A DNA stretch of 49,773 nt. Source: a phage. The stretch is from the sequence record PZ715804.1. The stretch is one strand, 5' to 3'. Under the pieces are notes generated by a model. It was not told where the DNA came from, did not search any database, and saw only the letters and a program-made list of their open reading frames with translations. This document shows, one piece after another, positions 3,574 to 49,697 of the stretch. Made by a program: the position numbers and the translations under genes. Positions within the stretch are counted from its first letter, which is position 1; each line of letters starts with the position of its first letter.

Positions 3574-3987
3574 ATGCATATTATCACTGGCGAGATCCGC
3601 AAAGAACCTAAGATTCTTGAACGTAACGGCGGCAATACTTATATCATCGAACTGGCAGAAAGCTATAAGCCTCGTGATGGCGATCGTGAATACACCAACT
3701 ACACATTCTTTTTTAGCGACGGTGGAAAGCCTGGCCTTGCTGATTGGTATCGTGAAGCGTTTCAGGTGGGTCGGGTAATTTCAGTATCTTGCGAATCTCT
3801 GAAGATTTATTCACGCGAGCATAACGGAACGGTTTATAACTCTCTGCAAGCGGCAGACTTCCCGAAGTTGGTATTTAGTCAACGAGGGCAAAGCAATCAA
3901 CAACGAGCACCGCAGCAACAACAGCGAACGCAATCACAGCCACAGCCAAATCCTCAATCAACTTTCGATGATGATATCCCGTTCTAA
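3574..3987 (+). CDS. ssb: single-stranded DNA-binding protein
   Basis: 137 aa; Gln/Pro-rich linker and C-terminal acidic tail ...TFDDDIPF identical in form to the E. coli SSB C-terminus. Confidence 0.85.
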   Translation: MHIITGEIRKEPKILERNGGNTYIIELAESYKPRDGDREYTNYTFFFSDGGKPGLADWYREAFQVGRVISVSCESLKIYSREHNGTVYNSLQAADFPKLVFSQRGQSNQQRAPQQQQRTQSQPQPNPQSTFDDDIPF

Positions 3988-3992
3988 CAAAA

Positions 3993-4014
3993 ATCCCCGC
4001 AATGCGGGGATTTT
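3993..4014. terminator. bidirectional intrinsic terminator between ssb and the tail fibre gene
   Basis: ATCCCCGC-AAT-GCGGGGAT hairpin flanked by A-run and T-run. Confidence 0.75.
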
Positions 4015-4015
4015 A

Positions 4016-5572
4016 TCATTTGGACTTCAACATTTTTATCTCTTCTTGTAACTCTTCAACTTTCTTTATTGTATCCTGTAAAGCTCTCATAGTGTCAAGC
4101 AATAAAGGAGTTGTATCAAGCTCAAGCCTTTCAACTTTTGGCCCGTTTAGCTCGTGGCTCTCATACACCCTTCTCTTAACATATAGATTGTCGATCTCTT
4201 CTATCTCCTGAGCTATAACACCTCTCCTTACCCTTTCTTGCTCATCATCGTTAAATATAAAGTTCCTAAATCTCATTGATTTTATGTTGTTGTATGCAAT
4301 GCTTGATTCATCATCCTTTATGCCGTGCTTTATATTTCTGTCAGATGCCGGAACCTGTTGGAAACTTCCAGCCCCTTGCGGTCCAGCGTAAGATATTTGC
4401 CCTGAAGCCATAAACCTGAAATGCATTTGCAGACCAATATTGCCTGCTCCATCCCTATTTTGAGTGCCTACTGATATTTGTGCCCTGGGCCATTCAGGAT
4501 TACCCGTAGTCATCATGCCAAATGCTACGCCGCCAACGTATCCCTGACCTCTGGTGTCACACGATCCAGCAATAAGTGATTGATAGTTTTCAGCACCACT
4601 ATCAGCGGTGTAAGCATTACCCTGGAAGCATGAAGCAGACCACATCTGGTTGTAACCCATAGATGTTTTCTGGCATAAAAACTGATTAGCTCTGAATCTA
4701 TTGTTAGTCTCGAAGTAGTTTGCCCCCTCATAAAATAATAAAGCCCCAGCATAACCATTATCGCTACGTTCTTTTCTGACGTAAATACCTGGCGTAGATA
4801 TTCCATCAGGTGACATAATCATCAATGATGACAATATGGACTGACTACCCCAGCTAGAACCGTCCCATGAATTCCTTCCTGCACCTATAGCGCCAGTGGT
4901 GTTAATAGTAAGAAAGTTAACAGCATCATTTTCACCTAACCCAATATTTTTTCTTGACTCTTTTTTATCCTCAAGACCAGCTAGATTGCCATCCTTAGTT
5001 AAAAGATTTTCAGCGTCAACGCTATTTGCTGCGTCCTTTGCTTCCTGCGCACTGACTGCTGCTGCATCTTTTGCGCTAACCGCTGCATCGCGTGCAGCGT
5101 TGGCTGCGTCACGCGCTAATTCAGCCTGATTTTGCGCAGCTTGAGAATCAGATTTCGCCTGATTCACATCAGCAACTATTTGCTCAAGTTTATTCATATC
5201 AGCAACTATTTGCTCAAGTTTATTCATATCAAGCTGATTTATCAGGTCTATAGCTGCCGCAATCTCAGTCTCTTTGCTTTGATAGTATCGAAGAGTCTCG
5301 GCGACGTTTTGAGCTAATCCGTTAACGGTTAGAGAGTCATTAAGTAGGATCACATACTTACCGTCATCGGCAGTCTGACCATCAGTAGAGATAGCCTTTA
5401 ATTCTGTATCACTAACGATATCGCTAATCACAGCTAGCTTAATTGGTTGCTCAAGGAACACGATAGTTGCACCTACGCGAATAAGAGCAAGCTGGTCTTT
5501 CCATTTTGTATCGGTTCCGTGAACCGTTCCGTCTGCATCCATTGATGCAGTGCCGCGTCGATATAAAGCCAT
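4016..5572 (-). CDS. tail fibre protein with C-terminal intramolecular chaperone (peptidase S74-like) domain
   Basis: 518 aa; coiled-coil region with duplicated MNKLEQIVAD; C-terminal segment RRGVIAQEIEEIDNLYV typical of S74 autoproteolytic chaperone domains; AAGGAG RBS. Confidence 0.75.
   Translation of the reverse strand: MALYRRGTASMDADGTVHGTDTKWKDQLALIRVGATIVFLEQPIKLAVISDIVSDTELKAISTDGQTADDGKYVILLNDSLTVNGLAQNVAETLRYYQSKETEIAAAIDLINQLDMNKLEQIVADMNKLEQIVADVNQAKSDSQAAQNQAELARDAANAARDAAVSAKDAAAVSAQEAKDAANSVDAENLLTKDGNLAGLEDKKESRKNIGLGENDAVNFLTINTTGAIGAGRNSWDGSSWGSQSILSSLMIMSPDGISTPGIYVRKERSDNGYAGALLFYEGANYFETNNRFRANQFLCQKTSMGYNQMWSASCFQGNAYTADSGAENYQSLIAGSCDTRGQGYVGGVAFGMMTTGNPEWPRAQISVGTQNRDGAGNIGLQMHFRFMASGQISYAGPQGAGSFQQVPASDRNIKHGIKDDESSIAYNNIKSMRFRNFIFNDDEQERVRRGVIAQEIEEIDNLYVKRRVYESHELNGPKVERLELDTTPLLLDTMRALQDTIKKVEELQEEIKMLKSK
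5162..5221. repeat. in-frame tandem repeat, two copies of 30 bp (one mismatch), inside the tail fibre coiled-coil
   Basis: ATTCA(C/T)ATCAGCAACTATTTGCTCAAGTTT twice, partial third copy follows; encodes MNKLEQIVAD twice on the minus strand. Confidence 0.85.
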
Positions 5573-5593
5573 AATATAAACTCCTTAAGTAAA

Positions 5594-5611
5594 TAGCACG
5601 AATTGCTAAAC
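5594..5611. promoter_or_regulatory. motif copy (TAGCACGAATTGCTAAAC) immediately upstream, on the opposite strand, of the tail fibre RBS
   Basis: Motif lies 8-25 nt from the AAGGAG RBS of the minus-strand tail fibre gene. Confidence 0.4.
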
Positions 5612-5652
5612 ACAGATTTTATCATCGCGCCATGAGTCTTGCAACGGGCAAC

Positions 5653-5672
5653 AAAAAACCGCCAGAAGGCGG
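5653..5672 (-). terminator. intrinsic terminator after the primase-like gene (minus strand)
   Basis: Plus-strand AAAAAACCGCCAGAAGGCGG; hairpin then T-run on minus strand. Confidence 0.65.
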
Positions 5673-6608
5673 TTAAAGTAGGTCGCTTGCTGAGAATAAT
5701 TTGGCTTGCATTCCTGAGCGGTATCCTCCCGGATTTGGGATGATTATCTTTAATTGTCGATCGTCAGCCATATATAGTGTTTCTTTGTCTGAAGGCTCGC
5801 ACGCCACCCGCATCTCCCGATCCCCATTGTATCTGTAAGCAACCATTTCGAGATTTTCAGGAGTGAAGCAGGCCCATACTTCTTGCTTTGTGTGAAATGC
5901 AATATGCTGAGCATCAATCCAGTTCAGGCATAAGTAGATCGCCTTTTCTGTTTTACCAGTCACGGCAACCGAGCAACTCGTGTATTTCTTCGCGTAAAAT
6001 GATTCTCTTCCTTCCTCATCAATAATCAAAATATTGCAAAACTCGTCATCAAGCCCGTCCTCGTGTACAAGTTGACACGGGATAGTGTGAAATAACGATT
6101 CCCCGCCATCCTCTCGGCGTTTTACGCCAACGTCGAATGATTCAGTAGGAAGAGACTCAAACACGCTTAGAGGAGTGTTTACGCGCTTCTCTGTGCGCTC
6201 CATGACTTTCATCACCGCTTCATGATCTGCCATCATGACATTGACACCCGATACCGGAGTCCGGCGCGCTTTCTTGTTTGCCTTGACGATGTATTCCTGC
6301 GGAACTTTTCCGAGAAATCTTCCCAGGATATTTATGCATTCGCTATACGGCATACCAGTTAATTTCATCAACCAACCTATCCCGGAGTCGTTACCGCATG
6401 AGTTGCAGATTGCACCGCCGTCTCCTGGGGTATTCAGATTGTCTGTCCAGCGAAAACGGTCTTTACCTCCACAGTTAGGGCAAGGTTGATGCTTCTTGTT
6501 GAATACCTCGTTAGGTAATCCGCATAATGACTGGAATGCATCTCGCCATAACCCCTTCATATACGGCAAGACGTCCTCTTTCTGAAACATCATAAACTCT
6601 TCGTTCAC
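5673..6608 (-). CDS. putative DNA primase (zinc-ribbon primase-like)
   Basis: 311 aa; GTG start with GGAG RBS; CPNCGGKDRFRW...CNSCG zinc-ribbon typical of phage/plasmid primases. Confidence 0.5.
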   Translation of the reverse strand: MNEEFMMFQKEDVLPYMKGLWRDAFQSLCGLPNEVFNKKHQPCPNCGGKDRFRWTDNLNTPGDGGAICNSCGNDSGIGWLMKLTGMPYSECINILGRFLGKVPQEYIVKANKKARRTPVSGVNVMMADHEAVMKVMERTEKRVNTPLSVFESLPTESFDVGVKRREDGGESLFHTIPCQLVHEDGLDDEFCNILIIDEEGRESFYAKKYTSCSVAVTGKTEKAIYLCLNWIDAQHIAFHTKQEVWACFTPENLEMVAYRYNGDREMRVACEPSDKETLYMADDRQLKIIIPNPGGYRSGMQAKLFSASDLL

Positions 6609-6621
6609 TTCCAGATCTCCA

Positions 6622-6660
6622 AATAAAAAACGCGTAGAAGGATGTTAACCCGCTACGCGT
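6622..6660 (-). terminator. hairpin plus T-run (minus strand) after the HTH gene, fused to the primase RBS
   Basis: 8 bp stem ACGCGTAG/CTACGCGT; on minus strand followed by T-run, GGAG and GTG start. Confidence 0.55.
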
Positions 6661-6664
6661 CGTT

Positions 6665-6686
6665 TGTTTTAACTAAAAATGCTATT
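6665..6686 (-). promoter_or_regulatory. motif copy (minus orientation) encoding the last codons and stop of the HTH gene
   Basis: Minus-strand reading AATAGCATTTTTAGTTAAAAC; followed by terminator then primase RBS. Confidence 0.4.
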
Positions 6687-7121
6687 TGTCGTTCCAATAT
6701 CTTCCTTCTTCACGACCCGCATAAACTTCTTGTTTTTGCAGCGCTTCTCAAGGCACTTTCCGTTCCCATCAAACTTCAGATCGAATCGCAGCCATGCGGC
6801 CCGAAATCCTTTGCAACCCTGTCGGCGATAAGCACGATGCGCCGCTTCAGCGCCTTGCCAGGAAATCATATTTCGATCCTTCCAACCTTGAACCGTCTGA
6901 TTGCTAACTTTCAGAGCCTTTGCACAAGCCGCCGGACCACCATAATATTCAATAAGAGCATCCAATCGCGCTCTCAGTCCTGCGCGCGTTTCTTCTTTAT
7001 GGATATAAAATCCGCAGCGCTGGCGAGGCTTTTTATCTTTACCGCGTCGCGTTCCGTTGTTACCATTGATGTGACGTTTATCGATTTCACCAGTAGACTC
7101 TGCGATACGTTTCATATTCAT
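6669..7121 (-). CDS. putative DNA-binding protein (Cro/YdaS-like HTH)
   Basis: Start at internal Met (MNMKRIAE) with GGAGAA RBS; HTH-like AACAKALKVSNQTVQGWKDRNMIS; basic; C-terminus ...TNSIFS* is encoded by the repeated motif. Confidence 0.4.
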   Translation of the reverse strand: MNMKRIAESTGEIDKRHINGNNGTRRGKDKKPRQRCGFYIHKEETRAGLRARLDALIEYYGGPAACAKALKVSNQTVQGWKDRNMISWQGAEAAHRAYRRQGCKGFRAAWLRFDLKFDGNGKCLEKRCKNKKFMRVVKKEDIGTTNSIFS

Positions 7122-7134
7122 ATTAATTCTCCTG

Positions 7135-7177
7135 TAGCACTTTTTGCTAAAAACGTTTACTGTATGCCGTGTATTAT
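7135..7177 (+). promoter_or_regulatory. motif-spacer-(-10) cassette upstream of helicase
   Basis: TAGCACTTTTTGCTAAAAAC, 22 nt spacer, TATTAT. Confidence 0.5.
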
Positions 7178-7215
7178 ATCGTAAACGATACAACGATTCA
7201 AAGGATTAAATAGCC

Positions 7216-9234: not shown

Positions 9235-9647
9235 TTACAGACAAAGGTGGTTATTTAGAATTTTACGAGAGAGATCCAAGCGACACTCGAAAGGAGGACG
9301 CTCATCAGGTGGATTGTGTATCCTGGCTGAAATACAATTTTCCTCACCTTCTATTTTGGCACACTGTCAATGAAGGTGAAAAAACAATCACATCGGCGCT
9401 CAGGGATGAGCAGGCCGGATTACTTAAAGGCGTGTCAGACTTCGTTATCCTGATTGGTGTTAACTCACGATACCCGTTTGCAGCAATCGAACTTAAGCGG
9501 GTTAATAAGTCAGGCAAAGGAAAGGCGTCACCAGTCAGCGACAAGCAAAGGGAATTTCTCCAAAAGGTCCGGGAGCGTGGCGGCTTCTCTGCCGTCGCAT
9601 ACGGATTCGGGCAATTCAAGATCGCAATTTACGAAATGATGAAATAG
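9231..9647 (+). CDS. VRR-NUC domain nuclease
   Basis: 138 aa; PD-(D/E)XK-type motifs VSDFVILIG ... AIELKRVN ... KQREFL; start overlaps helicase stop (ATGA). Confidence 0.6.
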   Translation: MITDKGGYLEFYERDPSDTRKEDAHQVDCVSWLKYNFPHLLFWHTVNEGEKTITSALRDEQAGLLKGVSDFVILIGVNSRYPFAAIELKRVNKSGKGKASPVSDKQREFLQKVRERGGFSAVAYGFGQFKIAIYEMMK

Positions 9648-9687
9648 CACTTTTTGTTAAAACTGCCGGGATGGAATCTGGCATTAT
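9645..9687 (+). promoter_or_regulatory. motif-spacer-(-10) cassette upstream of dam
   Basis: TAGCACTTTTTGTTAAAAC (TAG is the stop of the VRR-NUC gene), 22 nt spacer, CATTAT. Confidence 0.5.
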
Positions 9688-9714
9688 TATCTCACCAAAA
9701 CGAGAGGAATAAAA

Positions 9715-10428
9715 ATGAAAGACTTTAATGATATCGAAACTATCGACTTTGCAGAAACTGGTTGCTCATTCACTCGCGAAGCAATAGCATCAGGCGGTTA
9801 TTATCAGGCATTGAAAACGCCAACCTGCAAAGAGATTTCAGGGCTTCGATACAAGGGGACAAATACCCCTGACGCTGTTCGTGATTTATGGTCAACCCCG
9901 CGCGAGGTTATCGCATACCTTGAGGGTCGTTACGGAAAATATGATCTAGACGCTGCGGCAAGCGAAGAAAATAAAGTTTGCGAGAAGTTTTATTCCCAGG
10001 AAACAAACTGCTTAAAAAGTTGGTGGGGTAAGAATAAGCACGTTTGGTTAAACCCTCCTTATAGCCGACCTGATATATTCGTCAAGAAGGCTATTGAGCA
10101 AATGGAGCACAACAACCAGATCGATATACTGTTACCAGCCGATAACTCTACGGCGTGGTTTACTGAGGTGCGACAGCACGCGGCTGAAATCATCTGGATT
10201 GAGGCTGACTTGACAGAAGATATTGACGGCAACGAGTATGCTCGATCCGGTCGTCTAGCTTTCATATCAGGTGAAACTGGAAAGGCCGTAGACGGCAATA
10301 ACAAAGGTTCGGTAATTTTTATTATGCGCGAACTTAAAGAAGGTGAGGTGCAACAGACTCACTACATCCCAATCACAAGCATTTGCCCTTCGGTGAAAAA
10401 CAAACGAGCAAAGGTGAGGAAAGTATGA
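9715..10428 (+). CDS. dam: DNA N6-adenine methyltransferase (phage Dam-like)
   Basis: 237 aa; catalytic NPPY motif (WLNPPYSRP); GAGGAA RBS. Confidence 0.7.
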   Translation: MKDFNDIETIDFAETGCSFTREAIASGGYYQALKTPTCKEISGLRYKGTNTPDAVRDLWSTPREVIAYLEGRYGKYDLDAAASEENKVCEKFYSQETNCLKSWWGKNKHVWLNPPYSRPDIFVKKAIEQMEHNNQIDILLPADNSTAWFTEVRQHAAEIIWIEADLTEDIDGNEYARSGRLAFISGETGKAVDGNNKGSVIFIMRELKEGEVQQTHYIPITSICPSVKNKRAKVRKV

Positions 10429-10676
10429 TGAGCGAAAAAATGGTTACTATTAAATTAACTGAGCAAGGTTTATGGCTTCTTTATCGCGCTACGTGCTGCG
10501 AGATTATGGAGCGAAACGGATTGACTAATGATGTTATTGGTTGCGATCTGTGGGAGTTCACTAGTTCTCTTGATATGTCTTTCGATGAGATAAAAAATGA
10601 ATACATAGAGAATTGGCCTTCAATCATACAGAGAGACGTAGAGGAACTTAAAGCTGATATGATCGTTCAGCACTAA
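10425..10676 (+). CDS. hypothetical protein
   Basis: 83 aa from ATG overlapping Dam stop (ATGATG) behind GAGGAAAG RBS; stop TAA lies inside a motif copy. Confidence 0.45.
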   Translation: MMSEKMVTIKLTEQGLWLLYRATCCEIMERNGLTNDVIGCDLWEFTSSLDMSFDEIKNEYIENWPSIIQRDVEELKADMIVQH

Positions 10677-10710
10677 TTGCTAAAACTACCCGGCGAAAGT
10701 CGGGTATAGT
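10669..10710 (+). promoter_or_regulatory. motif-spacer-(-10)-hairpin cassette
   Basis: AGCACTAATTGCTAAAAC, 22 nt spacer, TATAGT; imperfect hairpin CCCGGC...GTCGGG. Confidence 0.5.
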
Positions 10711-10742
10711 TATTTCATCGAGACGAAATGAGGAATCAAAAG

Positions 10743-10952
10743 ATGGCACGCATTAACGCAAACTTTTTCAATATCGCTCAACAGTCCGCAAAAATGGCTG
10801 TTCATATCACTGACAAGAAAGGTGGCAACTTTGATTGGGATATTGCTATGAACTTCCTTAAAATGGCTTATTACCTCTGCTCAGTCAAAGATGTTGAGTG
10901 TTTTATTGAAAGCGTGGAGAAACTAACCAATGCTGATAAAAAAACAAGGTAA
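10743..10952 (+). CDS. hypothetical protein
   Basis: 69 aa (MARINANFF...) from ATG behind GAGGAA RBS, downstream of promoter-like cassette 10669-10710. Confidence 0.45.
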   Translation: MARINANFFNIAQQSAKMAVHITDKKGGNFDWDIAMNFLKMAYYLCSVKDVECFIESVEKLTNADKKTR

Positions 10953-11202
10953 AAGAGAGGTTTGGGATCACGCGAAGGAGTGCGGAATCTCAGACGATAT
11001 AGCACTAATAGCAAAATATTTCGATATAAAGGATGTTAGCATCATCTCAAACGGAAAGATTTCATTTATGGAAGATATGCCGAGAAAAATGCATAGAGTG
11101 CCAGCCACCCCATCACTTGAATTTTATCGTGAAGAAGGAAAGAGAATTGAGCGAGAACGAAAAACAGCAAAGAACAACAAGTCTTCCAGGCTTAAACATT
11201 AA
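10930..11202 (+). CDS. hypothetical protein (frame A of a possibly frameshifted gene)
   Basis: 90 aa ORF; overlaps the next ORF in another frame. Confidence 0.35.
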   Translation: MLIKKQGKREVWDHAKECGISDDIALIAKYFDIKDVSIISNGKISFMEDMPRKMHRVPATPSLEFYREEGKRIERERKTAKNNKSSRLKH

Positions 11203-11434
11203 CGCAGAAGATTATCAGACTATCTGGATCGGAAAAAAGCAGGTTAAGAAAATCCCTTTCTCTGATTGGTTGCCTCCTGACTTCGTTAATGTGCTTTGCA
11301 CCATCGGTATGGAACAGGAGTTGCATATAGGTTATTACTCACCAGGTAGAAACAGCATAATGCTTGAGGTTGATGGGAAACTTGTTGAGTTTAAATCTTC
11401 AGATCTCGGATTCTGGTTAAAGGCTGTGGCATGA
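11033..11434 (+). CDS. hypothetical protein (frame B; no start codon near where frame A stops, so a frame discontinuity is suspected)
   Basis: 133 aa ORF in +1 frame relative to 10930..11202; protein-like C-terminal half. Confidence 0.3.
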   Translation: MLASSQTERFHLWKICREKCIECQPPHHLNFIVKKERELSENEKQQRTTSLPGLNINAEDYQTIWIGKKQVKKIPFSDWLPPDFVNVLCTIGMEQELHIGYYSPGRNSIMLEVDGKLVEFKSSDLGFWLKAVA

Positions 11435-11512
11435 ATCTTTATTTTGCTGTAGTATTAACACCGCTAATTTCATTTTTAGTAATGTATTTCATTATCATGT
11501 AAGGATTAAAAT

Positions 11513-12664
11513 ATGTCACAAGCTAAAATCACTACCGAACAACTTGTCGAAGAGCGCATGAACGGCCTAACACTTCGCGAGATCGCGGAAAAGTACGGTA
11601 TGCACATTCGAACTGTTGAAGCTCGCCACGCAAAGTTGGCAAAAGAAGGTCACTTCCACGGTAACGAGCATGTTGCTAAGAACGTACCGGAAGGATTCAT
11701 GGTAAAAGGCACATCAACGATGATTCGCGGCGATGGGACCGAGGTGGTGCGCTGGGTTAAGACCGATCAGGACCGTGAGAAGATTGCAGCAATGATGGAA
11801 GCGGCGCGTATTGCATTCTGTGAAGATCTGCCGCGAGCAAAGCCAACTGAGCTACTAACCTCACAAGGGCTTACGACAGCGATGGGTAAGCTGGCACTCT
11901 ATCCGGTATTCGATCTTCATATTGGCGCGCTTGCTCATAAGCATGAATGCGGAGAGAACTATTCTACCGATGTGGCGGAAAAAGTGCTGAGTGACTTCTT
12001 TAATTACGCGATCGATATTGCTCCGAACGCAGAGAAGGCTGTTCTGTTAATCGGCGGTGACTTCCTGCACTCTGACGGACTTGATGCAGTTACTCCGGCA
12101 AGCGGTCACGTTCTTGATCAGGATTCACGATATGCAAAATTGGTGCATGTAGCTATTCGATCTGTTCGTCGCGCTATCGACAAAATGCTGACTAAACACA
12201 AAGAGGTCGAAGTTCAGGTTGTCGAAGGAAACCACGACCAGGCCGGGATGATTTGGTTGCGCGCCGCAATGGCTGCATACTATGAAGACGAGCCGAGAGT
12301 ATTCGTTGACGTAAGCCCTATGGTTCTACATAAGACTCGCTGGGGAAATACTTTGCTTGGATATACTCACGGTCACACGATGAAAAAGGCAGAGACTCGA
12401 CTCGCAGCTATGGCAGCAGATTTCCGCGCAGATTTTGGTGAAAGCAAATACGTGTACACGCATAGCGGACACTGGCATCATCAGACAATCACTGAACACT
12501 CGTTAGGTATTGATGAGGTTCACGGGCAGTTAGGCGCGAAAGATGCATACGCCGCGCGAGGTGGGTGGCGCTCATATCGCCAGGCGGCGGTAATCGTTTA
12601 CGATAAACAGTTTGGTGAAATCGGTCGATTCATATATCGTCCAGAAATGACAGGATCGCACTAA
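11513..12664 (+). CDS. calcineurin-like metallophosphoesterase with N-terminal HTH-like region
   Basis: 383 aa; phosphoesterase motifs VFDLHIG, GGDFLHSDG, VEGNHDQ; N-terminal LTLREIAEKYGMHIRTV. Confidence 0.5.
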   Translation: MSQAKITTEQLVEERMNGLTLREIAEKYGMHIRTVEARHAKLAKEGHFHGNEHVAKNVPEGFMVKGTSTMIRGDGTEVVRWVKTDQDREKIAAMMEAARIAFCEDLPRAKPTELLTSQGLTTAMGKLALYPVFDLHIGALAHKHECGENYSTDVAEKVLSDFFNYAIDIAPNAEKAVLLIGGDFLHSDGLDAVTPASGHVLDQDSRYAKLVHVAIRSVRRAIDKMLTKHKEVEVQVVEGNHDQAGMIWLRAAMAAYYEDEPRVFVDVSPMVLHKTRWGNTLLGYTHGHTMKKAETRLAAMAADFRADFGESKYVYTHSGHWHHQTITEHSLGIDEVHGQLGAKDAYAARGGWRSYRQAAVIVYDKQFGEIGRFIYRPEMTGSH

Positions 12665-49200: not shown

Positions 49201-49697
49201 GGCTTGGGGATAACGAGGCGGCACTTGCTCAAAAATTAGACTCTTGGAGCAATGCCAGTTCTACCGGGGCAATGTACGGCGTCAAGCTGGGTCTGAAATA
49301 CAACGGACAGGAATATAGCGCAGGCATGGCTATGTCTCTGATTGGTTCCGGCGCAGCTGTTAAGGCGCAAATTCTATTCGAGGCGTCGCGATTTGCAATC
49401 ATGACAGGGATGAACGGTCAGACTCAGTATCCTTTCGTTGTTGAAGGTAATCAGGTGATTCTTAATAGCGCCATTATTAAGAACGGATTTATCACGAATG
49501 CGATGATTGGTAATGTTATTCAATCGAATAACTATGTCGTTAACAAGGCTGGCTGGAGACTTGACAAGGGTGGAACATTAGAAAACTACGGAAGTGACGT
49601 TGAGGGTGCAATGAAGCAAACTAATACCACAATATCTGTTAGGGATGCGAGTGGTCGCCTGAGGGTTCAGATTGGCAGGTTGACTGGTTCATGGTAA
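46278..49697 (+). CDS. central tail fibre / host specificity protein (lambda gpJ homolog)
   Basis: 1139 aa; size and position after M-L-K-I homologs; fibronectin-III-like middle and coiled-coil C-terminal region. Confidence 0.85.
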   Translation: MIQKVISGSKGGSQKPHNPVEMEDNLISINKIKILLAVSDGEIDETFSLKQLMFNSVPVQNEDGSFNFEGVRAEFRPGTQTQEYIKGMEDSSSEVTVNREVTTDNPYTISVTNKTLSAIRIKMFMPRGVRIESNGDKNGVRVEYEVQQAVDGGSFETVLTDVIEGKTMSGYDRSRRVNLPNFNNQVIFRVVRKTPDSNDSNVVDAIQVRSYAEVIDAKFRYPLTGLLFVEFDSKMFPNQLPTISIRKRWKIVSVPSNYDPESRTYNGNWDGTFKKAWTNNPAWVLYDLMINQRYGLDQKELGIAVDKWALYEAAQYCDQMVPDGKGGTEPRYLCDVIIQSQTDAYKVIRDICSIFRGMSFWNGESISVIIDRPREPAYIFTNDNVVNGDFSYTFASEKSMYTTCNVMFDDEQNMYQQDVEPVFDREATLRFGNNVTSITAIGCTRRSEANRRGRWILKTNLRSTTVNFATGLEGMIPTIGDVVAIADNFWSSNLTMNLSGRLLEVSGSQIFLPLRVDARAGDFIIVNKPDGKPVKRTISSVSADGKTIEVNIGFGFPVKPNTVFAIDRTDIALQQYVVTKIDKGDDDEEFTYKITAVEYDPNKYDEIDYGVNIDDRPTSIVEPDQIPRPENVQVSSESRIVQGMSVETMIVSWDKVPYAVFYDVQWRKDNGNWQNVPQTANKEVYVEGIYAGNYQVRVRSVAGSGTTSGWSNIVAATLTGKQGEPGRPINLTATDDVVFGIRTKWGFSDGSGDTAYTELQQSPDGTVDNASLLSLIPYPQHEYYHSPMPGGNIVWYRVRTVDRIGNVSQWTDFVRGMASTNVDDIIGGISVDIENSPGYEWLVDNATDNAAQNAANAEAAIENALANDKDAIYMKKENGKRKAEYTKSLQLIADETQARVTAVEQLRASFGDQISASNSELREVIATETGALSREIDQLRAEIGDDIQASLTDIREAIANETEARTQADLTLSARLGDNEAALAQKLDSWSNASSTGAMYGVKLGLKYNGQEYSAGMAMSLIGSGAAVKAQILFEASRFAIMTGMNGQTQYPFVVEGNQVILNSAIIKNGFITNAMIGNVIQSNNYVVNKAGWRLDKGGTLENYGSDVEGAMKQTNTTISVRDASGRLRVQIGRLTGSW

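Follow-up and report, generated by a model that had tools for sequence, protein, structure and literature searches.

A probable lateral tail fibre gene with a C-terminal intramolecular chaperone domain and a 30-bp stalk duplication in a T1-like phage

A tail fibre gene that lies on the minus strand beside genes of DNA metabolism, and that carries an in-frame tandem repeat in its stalk, raises the question of whether it is a recently acquired host-range cassette with an adjustable length or the ordinary side fibre of its phage family. We analysed it within the window, i.e., the whole stretch of 49,773 nucleotides (PZ715804.1), which is the complete, circularly permuted genome of a Tunavirus (Drexlerviridae). 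In the ORF listing of the window, the fibre gene starts with ATG and encodes 518 residues (Table 1). The protein shares 99.8% identity with the "tail fiber protein" of phage JMPW2 and matches the tail fiber family phrog_1980 (E=1.5e-101). The gene is of a known kind and is already annotated in public genomes. Our overall explanation, which we hold with considerable confidence, is that this is the gene for the lateral (side) tail fibre in a T1-like siphovirus, inherited vertically at the standard locus of the family. Beyond its correct annotation, the gene then matters little.

Table 1. Features of the fibre locus, with positions in the window.
Feature	Position	Strand	Remarks
Bidirectional intrinsic terminator	3989..4014	both	common to the convergent SSB-like gene (+) and fibre gene (-)
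Lateral tail fibre CDS (probable)	4016..5572	(-)	518 aa + stop TGA 4016-4018
Intramolecular chaperone (Peptidase_S74) domain	4019..4345	(-)	aa 410-518; Ser410 codon 4343-4345, Lys415 codon 4328-4330
Distal, presumed receptor-binding region	4346..5020	(-)	aa 185-409
Alanine-rich alpha-helical stalk	5021..5332	(-)	aa 81-184; trimeric coiled coil by inference
GCTGCACGCGAT (AARD-coding)	5087..5098	(-)	junction of an in-frame deletion of 258 bp (86 aa) in the stalk, compared with the 594-aa Sfin/Shfl1-type fibre
In-frame 30-bp tandem duplication	5162..5231	(-)	two perfect units + 10-nt near-repeat
N-terminal beta-rich anchor domain	5333..5572	(-)	aa 1-80; family-wide conservation to ~aa 125
Motif copy GTTTAGCAATTCGTGCTA	5594..5611	(-)	core palindrome TAGCA-N5-TGCTA
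Sigma-70-type promoter of the fibre gene (putative)	5616..5644	(-)	TTGCAA, 17 nt, (TG)ATAAAAT; consensus scan
Intrinsic terminator of the upstream primase gene	5657..5674	(-)	terminator scan; conserved in 10 genomes

The original prediction described the gene as lying inside a DNA-metabolism block and far from the late operon. The minus-strand orientation and the SSB-like and primase neighbours were confirmed, but "far" does not describe a distance of ~4 kb. Because the map is permuted and the gpJ-like tail gene ends at 49697, i.e., at the end of the window, the fibre gene lies ~4 kb beyond the end of the tail operon, just as it does in T1. It has T1 ST26 as its syntenic counterpart and occupies the Drexlerviridae fibre locus, that of a minus-strand gene between the SSB-like and primase genes, ~3-4 kb after the gpJ/cor end. 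T1 and the ten Tunavirus loci that were fetched all show the gene order Erf, SSB-like, terminator, fibre (-), primase (-). Across positions 3900-5700 the window is 99.6% identical to JMPW2, SH2 and Henu5_2. Against JMPW2, the identity is 99.8-100% per 500-nt bin over the fibre locus, and the divergence is confined to mosaic patches outside the fibre gene, for example at 5500-7000. A 50-aa ORF at 5473-5625 (-), the counterpart of T1 ST25, was judged not to be a gene because its start lies within the -10 region of the promoter ahead of the fibre gene and it runs into the beginning of that gene.

A mobile host-range cassette, acquired recently and put into the replication/recombination block, would fit with a gene that runs opposite to its left neighbours under its own promoter and terminator. 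The distal two-thirds of the fibre, moreover, are common to Dhillonvirus fibres at 57-60% identity, indicating that module exchange took place at some depth. However, T1 shares the locus, the orientation and the regulatory signals, including promoter and terminator, with all fetched Tunavirus genomes, the N-terminal 125 residues occur family-wide, and the identity to JMPW2 is uniform across the fibre gene and both left-hand neighbours. A repeat search found no direct or inverted repeats bracketing the gene, and no empty fibre locus was seen, the site being occupied in every relative fetched; the flanking repeats and the presence/absence polymorphism of a mobile or invertible cassette are thus both missing. 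Since the fibre gene has the same position in T1 and in every relative fetched, cassette acquisition by the window phage, which had been proposed from the isolation of the gene, is not upheld. The "detached" position is a family trait with no sign of recent acquisition; the acquisition of the whole gene is already contradicted by these data, and we regard a recent cassette as very improbable.

The regulatory signals of the fibre gene suggest a transcription unit of its own, which would consist of a sigma-70 promoter, a palindromic motif over the transcript start and a bidirectional terminator. The terminator, first placed at 3993-4014, was found again: its hairpin folds at ~-17 kcal/mol on each strand (z ~-4.7) and lies between an A-run and a T-run. 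Relatives retain this terminator, and the homologous site of T1 carries a terminator annotation for each strand. At the other end, neither the promoter hexamers nor the TG vary among 10 Tunavirus genomes, whereas the spacer sequence does. The motif copy named in the original prediction, which lies between the -10 element and the Shine-Dalgarno sequence AAGGAG (5581-5586), proved to be one of 12 copies in the window (0.06 expected); T1 has 13 copies. The copy upstream of the fibre gene is invariant in 10 genomes and is inverted relative to the others, which hints that this phage-wide promoter-associated motif bears on expression timing. As an operator, the motif would mediate repression at the fibre promoter, where transcription would start near 5609, and would act from ~-42 at the other promoters; a candidate ligand is the phage regulator encoded at 6669-7193 (-) (phrog_2856). 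The upstream primase gene ends in an intrinsic terminator, so that the fibre gene is separately transcribed. Promoter-like matches inside the repeat (5232-5205) and at 4785-4757 were discounted because the region contains 3 such matches, compared with 5.0 in shuffled sequence.

The N-terminal part of the fibre corresponds to the conserved anchor of Drexlerviridae lateral tail fibres. More than 1000 phage records match the fibre, and most of them, hundreds of Drexlerviridae fibres, do so only over aa 1-122/145. Over residues 1-100 there is a single difference from T1, and residues 1-176 match the N-termini of the depolymerases with PDB IDs 7vyv and 7lzj (E ~5e-41). The AF2 model places strands at aa 2-77, followed by a single helix of ~104 residues at 81-184 (pLDDT 77-84 over aa 120-180), which contains the product of the 30-bp repeat. 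The duplicated unit had been assigned to a coiled coil, and its position inside this predicted helix is consistent with that assignment. A conserved fibre N-terminal anchor in Drexlerviridae is also described in the BASEL papers, whose AlphaFold-Multimer models of the related Drexlerviridae fibre Gp36 show an elongated N-terminal coiled coil. In a crude heptad-register scan the register changed around the repeat; the scan is too coarse for structural claims.

Self-cleaving chaperone domains of the S74 type are well known. The C-terminal region of the fibre was predicted to be such a domain, and the Pfam search bore this out: aa 410-460 align to positions 1-52 of Peptidase_S74 (PF13884) with E=3.3e-8 and 34.1 bits, above the gathering cut-off of 22 bits. 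The loss of the S74 catalytic residues would have argued against the assignment, but S410 and K415 are intact. They form a putative catalytic pair with S-x4-K spacing in S410-D-R-N-I-K415 and are the only invariant columns among 54 diverse homologues. The Ser/Lys pair is present in 113 of 121 sequences, and in each of the two columns six of the remaining eight are alignment gaps. In T5 pb1 the pair S1264/K1269 has the same spacing, and the substitution S1264A blocks cleavage (PMC4690869); the mechanism proposed for T5 also includes the auxiliary residues Asp1239 and, from the neighbouring chain, Arg1250. Residues 389-518 of the window fibre match the T5-like L-shaped tail fibre 8hqz_d (E=4e-10), the part upstream of S410 being aligned from aa 389 only, where the model is of low confidence. 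When the C-terminal 129 residues alone were compared with PDB sequences, 8hqz_d was the sole match, the other matches being noise, and no direct alignment to endosialidase was obtained. Because only 8hqz_d matched, the argument for the catalytic residues rests on the register of the Pfam profile, the invariance of the two columns and the T5 paper.

The predicted structure agrees with this assignment. The AF2 model has a pLDDT of 73-88 over aa 410-518 and ends in a helix at 487-517; in the predicted monomer, an IMC fold with a terminal helix thus lies at the extreme C-terminus. The best Foldseek matches of aa 410-518 were MyRF ICA (PDB ID 7dc3, E=1e-4), endosialidase IMC (3gw6) and GA-1 IMC (3gud). 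A second tandem-repeat row, at 4025-4081 (79% matches, with indels), falls in codons of the C-terminal coiled coil and was treated as compositional.

Between the stalk and the chaperone domain lies the distal region. Its identity is 92-95% within the Sfin/BIFF/JMPW2 fibre type and 57-60% against Dhillonvirus fibres, and it is unrelated to the distal half of the T1 fibre. These comparisons support the view that the fibre varies, and exchanges modules, in its distal part. Neither the PDB sequence search nor Foldseek gave a solved-structure match for the distal tip region, and the AF2 monomer model is unreliable distally, with a pLDDT of 30-50 over aa 216-345. A role in reversible glycan binding is suggested by the BASEL papers, whose authors note that direct proof for Drexlerviridae is lacking.

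Taken together, three chains would form one fibre. The N-terminal beta domain would dock it on the tail, the ~104-residue helix would form a trimeric stalk, and the distal region would bind a surface glycan as a reversible first contact. The S74 chaperone would drive trimer folding and then cleave itself off before Ser410 through the Ser410/Lys415 dyad, leaving a mature fibre of ~409 residues and a released fragment (aa 410-518) with a predicted mass of ~12-13 kDa. The cleavage at Ser410, the trimerisation and the receptor are inferred by homology. In particle preparations of Sfin-1, the 594-aa orthologue CDS61 was detected by LC-MS/MS (PMC6714547), which is weak evidence for virion association since non-structural proteins are listed in that proteome too.

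The in-frame 30-bp tandem repeat that duplicates MNKLEQIVAD is present. Tandem Repeats Finder reported it with a period of 30, 2.3 copies, 97% matches and no indels, and a repeat search gave the units 5162-5191 and 5192-5221 with 97% identity. On the coding strand, GATATGAATAAACTTGAGCAAATAGTTGCT occurs twice, perfectly, followed by GATGTGAAT, so that MNKLEQIVAD is encoded at aa 116-125 and again at aa 126-135. Chance does not account for a perfect tandem copy of 30 bp. One-copy relatives read TGATATGAAT...(30 nt)...TGATGTGAAT at the same place. The "partial third copy" of the original prediction does exist as 10 nucleotides, but these are an ancestral near-repeat and not a copy of an array, which explains an origin by slippage: a single recent event between two pre-existing 10-nt near-repeats 30 nt apart would have produced the duplication. 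An assembly or sequencing artefact, to which short tandem repeats are prone, seems extremely improbable here, since the same junction occurs in three genomes deposited independently by different laboratories as well as in the window, 60 bp is well inside read length, and the reading frame is kept.

The distribution of the duplication bears on whether it is an active length switch. The junction is found only in the window and in JMPW2, SH2 and Henu5_2; about 20 other phages and ~100 protein cluster representatives have one copy, and none of these other representatives has a duplication at the same site. Scans for the junction in IMG/VR, GTDB genomes, JGI metagenomes and E. coli genomes matched JMPW2 alone, and three copies were found neither there nor in 50,697 phage records. 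A contingency repeat, whose frequent expansion and contraction would alter stalk length, adsorption or host range, could draw on the perfect duplication as a slippage substrate, on the difference in copy number between clades (one or two) and on the plasticity of stalk length in the family. However, only these two states occur, the two-copy state is identical in all four carriers, and two copies are the minimum for an array and carry no signature of hypervariability. We therefore consider a contingency repeat improbable, and the proposed change of length by repeat expansion or contraction was not substantiated. Relatives do carry the identical gene in the same position, as would also speak against that proposal, but a repeat number that is invariant at two is a feature of the JMPW2 clade only. 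The duplication would add 10 helical residues (~1.5 nm), and the two-copy state would have become fixed in a few laboratory-contaminant phages that are almost identical and form one small clade. Most probably the duplication is tolerated as an allele close to neutral and does not serve as a length switch, near-neutrality being assumed; an insertion of 10 residues, which is no whole number of heptads, could affect stalk geometry.

Fibre length does differ among relatives (501, 518 and 594 aa); the larger differences are deletions between short ARD-coding repeats and do not reflect the number of 30-bp units. In a DNA alignment, the deletion junctions fall at short direct repeats, and the segment missing from the window fibre is flanked in long alleles by GCTGCACGCGAT and GCAGCACGTGAC; a blastn break at 5086 agrees with this junction. 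In a separate event, the window lineage would have had its stalk shortened by 86 residues through deletion between two AARD-coding repeats. At least two independent stalk deletions at ARD-coding repeats were recognised, besides more deletion alleles among metagenomic clusters and the single 30-bp duplication. Stalk-length variation in the family stems mainly from independent in-frame deletions between short ARD-coding repeats, the stalk evolving through small recombination events at such sites.

Selection on these length changes can be considered in two forms. The alanine-rich stalk of Tunavirus lateral fibres is a hotspot of short-repeat-mediated in-frame indels. It is rather unlikely, though conceivable, that selection acts there to fit fibre length to how thick the glycan layer of the host is, short for rough laboratory E. 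coli and long for smooth Shigella. We are similarly doubtful that stalk shortening is an adaptive tuning of fibre reach to O-antigen-free hosts, with the 86- and 93-aa deletions and the 10-aa duplication all selected. All six short-stalk phages (JMPW2, SH2, Henu5_2, phiD2-2, Eco_BIFF and FCWL1; hosts JM110, MC1061, BW25113, delta-rfaD, MG1655 and BL21) are from rough laboratory E. coli, and the short state was reached independently by two different deletions. Among the long-stalk phages with a stated host, 12 of 13 are from Shigella (Fisher p=2.6e-4), a test that overstates the support because the six short alleles represent two deletion events and the genomes are not independent. However, LHE71 has a long allele and was isolated on K-12, and the same pattern would follow if rough hosts make the fibre dispensable and selection on it is relaxed; the fibre gene of vB_SsoS_008, which appears disrupted, is compatible with such dispensability. 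The natural length variants of 501, 518 and 594 aa, which have the same tip, could be used to test the effect of length on adsorption to rough and smooth hosts.

The fibre can be placed among several known systems. Three PDB depolymerases (7vyv, 7vz3 and 7lzj), which we take to be capsule depolymerases of T1-like Klebsiella phages, share the anchor and the start of the stalk with it over aa 1-176, whereas their distal part is a ~900-aa enzyme; a Pfam search detected no enzymatic domain in the window fibre. T1 ST26 (YP_003919.1, 728 aa) lies at the same locus, between ST27 and primase, with the same promoter, motif and bidirectional terminator. Its residues 1-100 are nearly identical and its stalk repeats are homologous to those of the window fibre, but it has one copy of the 10-aa unit and a full-length stalk, and its distal half from ~aa 210 is unrelated, without alignment to the S74 domain; its record likens this half to the HK97/HK022 side tail fibre. 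The 594-aa fibres of the Shigella phages Sfin-1 to -6, Shfl1, pSf-2 and ISF001/002 are of the same type as the window fibre, with 92-95% identity over the common residues and the same S74 domain, but their stalk is 86 residues longer and carries the 10-aa unit once. The JMPW2 fibre (ALT58175.1), found also in vB_EcoS_SH2 and vB_Henu5_2, has the same 518 aa with one N/D difference, the same two-copy repeat, the same locus and the same flanks.

At the C-terminus, endosialidase (K1F, 3gw6), the GA-1 appendage (3gud) and MyRF (7dc3) have a fold in common with aa 410-518 (Foldseek probability ~1.0) and carry unrelated passenger domains, namely a sialidase beta-propeller or beta-helix, or a transcription factor. 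T5 pb1 (1396 aa) resembles the window fibre in its C-terminal chaperone, which has an equally spaced Ser...Lys dyad and then a coiled-coil helix, but differs in its N-terminal attachment. Gp36 of JakobBernoulli (Bas07) is described in the BASEL work as having an N-terminal anchor, a long coiled coil, a T5-like tip and a C-terminal intramolecular chaperone, and the overall design of the window fibre matches this in its anchor, predicted coiled coil and chaperone. The two proteins are 51% identical over aa 1-144 and differ in their distal module, and Bas07 Gp36 is reported there to let the phage infect K-12 even when the O16 antigen has been restored.

The open reading frame at 4016-5572(-) encodes a protein of 518 aa, and every sequence feature listed in the original prediction was found again in the window. 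The region 3900-5700 showed 99.6% identity with Escherichia phages JMPW2, vB_EcoS_SH2 and vB_Henu5_2 and 92-96% identity with about 20 more Tunavirus genomes (Drexlerviridae, T1-like), whose annotation calls the ORF a tail fibre protein. The gene is the already annotated tail fibre gene of JMPW2, SH2 and Henu5_2, an ordinary and known gene; what is added here is small, namely its two-copy allele, the junctions of the stalk deletions and the inverted motif.

A gpJ-like tail gene of 1139 aa ends at 49697 and the window restarts right after it; the window is the whole genome, permuted. Because of this permutation, the fibre gene lies about 4 kb beyond the tail operon, and not far from the late operon as had been proposed. 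The locus comprises, in this order, Erf-type recombinase, SSB-like protein (phrog_44), bidirectional terminator, fibre(-) and primase(-). The same order was found in T1, whose fibre gene is ST26 and whose annotation has both terminators, and in all other Tunavirus loci examined. The "detached" site, which had been taken to suggest cassette acquisition, is therefore a family character and no argument for an acquisition by this phage. No direct or inverted repeats bracketing the fibre gene were found. The mobile-cassette reading was tried and dropped, as it fails a defining test. The SSB-like protein of this locus (3574-3987(+), 137 aa) matches the single-strand DNA binding protein family phrog_44 with E=1e-22, and a Pfam search with it gave no match. 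It has a Gln/Pro-rich acidic tail ending in DDDIPF, which is typical of an SSB C-terminus.

A comparison with JMPW2 by 500-nt bins gave 99.8-100% identity from 47.5 kb across the end and start of the window to 5.5 kb, with the 2000-2499 bin (90.9%) as the lone exception, and a mosaic patch starts at 5.5 kb in the primase region. Patches at 5500-7000, 2000-2500 and 9500-11700 are 88-94% identical to JMPW2 against the 99.8-100% background. Judged from these identities, the patch beginning just upstream of the fibre gene (primase/regulator region) implies that another Tunavirus was recently a partner in recombination.

On the coding strand, the tandem repeat in the fibre gene consists of GATATGAATAAACTTGAGCAAATAGTTGCT twice, perfectly repeated, and then GATGTGAAT, so that the peptide MNKLEQIVAD is duplicated (aa 116-125 and 126-135). 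An alignment of eleven fibres revealed two copies of the 10-aa unit in the window and JMPW2 and one copy in T1, Sfin-5, Shfl1, ISF002, UP30, Eco_BIFF, FCWL1, phiD2-2 and EF3-1. We searched for the duplication junction with a 47-nt probe and found it in only five phage records, which represent three phages (JMPW2, SH2 and Henu5_2); the exact unit occurred as a single copy in 28 further phage records. The junction was not found in IMG/VR (JMPW2's own entry aside), GTDB genomes, JGI metagenomes or complete E. coli genomes, the repeat site was duplicated in none of about 100 cluster representatives sharing the N-terminus, and no collection searched contained a three-copy sequence. With the junction limited to three phages and the window and no third copy in these collections, the allele is of recent origin, confined to one clade and fixed at two copies. 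In genomes with a single copy, TGATATGAAT and, 30 nt further on, TGATGTGAAT already border the unit. The partial third copy that had been noted does exist as sequence, but it is an ancestral near-repeat, which accounts for the duplication by one slippage or unequal-exchange event. The contingency-repeat reading was also considered, and it fails a defining test in the collections searched. JMPW2, SH2 and Henu5_2 were all isolated on laboratory K-12 strains, and the source described for JMPW2 is contaminated experiment samples (PMC4919409).

Two independent deletions were identified by comparison with the 594-aa Sfin/Shfl1-type fibre. A segment of 258 bp (86 aa), which in the long alleles lies between GCTGCACGCGAT and GCAGCACGTGAC, each coding for AARD, is missing from the window and JMPW2. 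In Eco_BIFF, FCWL1 and phiD2-2, 279 bp (93 aa) are missing between two AGCGCGTGAC repeats, and more junctions in the same segment were found in the cluster representatives P0057, P0074, P0109 and P0112. The original prediction of a variable stalk length thus agrees with the evolutionary plasticity of the stalk, but this plasticity comes from deletions at short ARD-coding repeats and not from expansion or contraction of the 30-bp array. At the textbook rise of 0.15 nm per helical residue, the stalk gains about 1.5 nm from the duplication and loses up to about 13 nm by deletion. All six short-stalk phages (501 and 518 aa) were isolated on rough laboratory E. coli, and 12 of the 13 long-stalk phages (594 aa) with a stated host came from Shigella (Fisher p=2.6e-4, but the six short alleles represent two deletion events). 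LHE71 has the long allele and a K-12 host. This host pattern is a lead, not a result. The record of Shigella phage vB_SsoS_008 splits the orthologous fibre gene (628-2386) into two annotated CDS, and tblastn revealed a frame change and a divergent patch at Sfin-type aa 269-306; either the gene is disrupted, and perhaps dispensable, or the record contains a sequencing error.

The hairpin 3' of the fibre stop codon has a folding energy of about -17 kcal/mol on both strands (z about -4.7) and lies between an A-run and a T-run. The hexamers and TG of the fibre promoter are invariant across ten Tunavirus genomes, with a spacer differing at many positions. The stretch TTAGCAATTC[G/A]TGCTATTTAC[T/C]TAAGGAGTTTA, which reaches the start codon, is conserved in the same genomes, the two bracketed positions being the only differences, each in a single genome. 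This promoter-to-start conservation is a good phylogenetic footprint. A 50-aa ORF at 5473-5625(-), equivalent to ST25 annotated in T1, has its start within the -10 element's region of the promoter for the fibre gene and overlaps the beginning of that gene; it is therefore probably not a real gene.

Coordinates of the repeat, transcription signals and motif copies
Feature	Position	Description	Method
Tandem repeat	5162-5231	period 30 bp, 2.3 copies, 97% matches, no indels	Tandem Repeats Finder
Primase gene terminator	5674-5657	the gene's own	
Fibre promoter (predicted)	5644-5616	TTGCAA, 17 nt, TGATAAAAT	
Other motif copies (1/2)	10668, 17298, 18414, 19848, 21769, 23569	18-nt sites	
Other motif copies (2/2)	24274, 25821, 26341, 27714, 29545	18-nt sites	

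The motif at 5594-5611, whose core is the palindrome TAGCA-N5-TGCTA, is one of 12 in the window (chance expectation 0.06), and T1 has 13 copies at equivalent intergenic sites. Read as TAGCACGAATTGCTAAAA, nine of the 11 other copies have a -10-like hexamer (TATAGT, TATAAT, TATGAT, TAGAAT or TATATT) at a distance of exactly 19 nt downstream (20 nt once); a Shine-Dalgarno sequence and an ATG lie further downstream, beginning 34-53 nt from the motif end. The motif thus marks a promoter-like class. TTGCTA inside the motif would be 22 nt from the -10, too far for a normal -35, which suggests a factor-dependent promoter class with a palindromic site centred near -42. GC-rich hairpins often occur between motif and -10. 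Only the fibre copy is inverted with respect to its gene, and it lacks that -10 element when read in the inverted direction. From the position of the predicted promoter, it would span roughly +2 to +19 of the fibre transcript. Our hypothesis is a dimeric DNA-binding protein that works from about -42 at the other promoters and blocks the fibre promoter; one candidate for it is the regulator that the phage encodes at 6669-7193(-) (phrog_2856). Alternatively, the fibre copy may act as a weak 5' RNA hairpin (-5.9 kcal/mol, z -2.3).

The first 100 residues of the fibre differ from T1 at one position. A tblastn search matched more than 1000 phage records, most aligning only to aa 1-122/145, and the same N-terminus heads phage depolymerases of known structure (PDB 7vyv, 7vz3 and 7lzj; E about 5e-41). 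An AlphaFold2 monomer run with a 54-sequence alignment predicted a beta-rich domain at aa 2-77, a single continuous helix at aa 81-184 containing the duplicated unit and, with confidence, a C-terminal domain (aa 410-518) with a long helix at its end; the distal region model is unreliable (pLDDT 30-50 over aa 216-345). A Foldseek search with aa 410-518 revealed similarity with the MyRF ICA domain (7dc3), the endosialidase intramolecular chaperone (3gw6) and the GA-1 chaperone (3gud), and aa 389-518 match the T5-like L-shaped tail fibre 8hqz_d in sequence (E=4e-10).

Pfam assigned aa 410-460 to Peptidase_S74 ("chaperone of endosialidase") with 34.1 bits against a curated cut-off of 22. The domain starts with A409-S410-D-R-N-I-K415, and no column other than S410 and K415 is invariant among 54 homologues with diverse stalks and tips. 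In a wider set, each is present in 113 of 121 sequences, and six of the other eight are alignment gaps in each column. Both catalytic residues on which the S74 reading depends are thus present, at a spacing equal to that of Ser1264/Lys1269 in T5 pb1. In pb1, auto-cleavage is blocked by S1264A, and the chaperone is freed once the Thr1263-Ser1264 bond is cut (PMC4690869). The T5 mechanism also has an auxiliary Asp and Arg. By homology, cleavage should occur before Ser410. Profile score, catalytic dyad and fold place the domain in the S74 family, with cleavage as a prediction. A second, weak 30-nt periodicity at 4025-4081 (1.9 copies, 79% matches, 10% indels) sits in the codons of the domain's C-terminal coiled-coil helix and is probably compositional.

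N-terminal homology and synteny place the protein in the Drexlerviridae lateral-fibre family. From N- to C-terminus it is built of an anchor, a coiled coil, a tip and an intramolecular chaperone, as described for Drexlerviridae fibres in the BASEL work; the BASEL authors regard O-antigen glycans as likely for the lateral fibres of this family, which by their account was never directly shown. Within the fibre type of the window, the tip and chaperone region is 92-95% identical. The fibre of Escherichia phage P-GXEC-L2P5 has its distal module in common with that of the window (59.6% identity); this record (PQ843332.1) is filed under Dhillonvirus at 88.6 kb, about twice the genus's usual genome size, and may be a concatemeric or chimeric assembly. 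Dhillonvirus fibres (such as those of phage jat and P-GXEC-L2P5) are 57-60% identical to the window in the tip and chaperone region, whereas the distal half of the T1 fibre is unrelated to it. Such mosaicism is usual for receptor-binding modules. The distal module has been exchanged at some depth, while the locus itself is ancestral.
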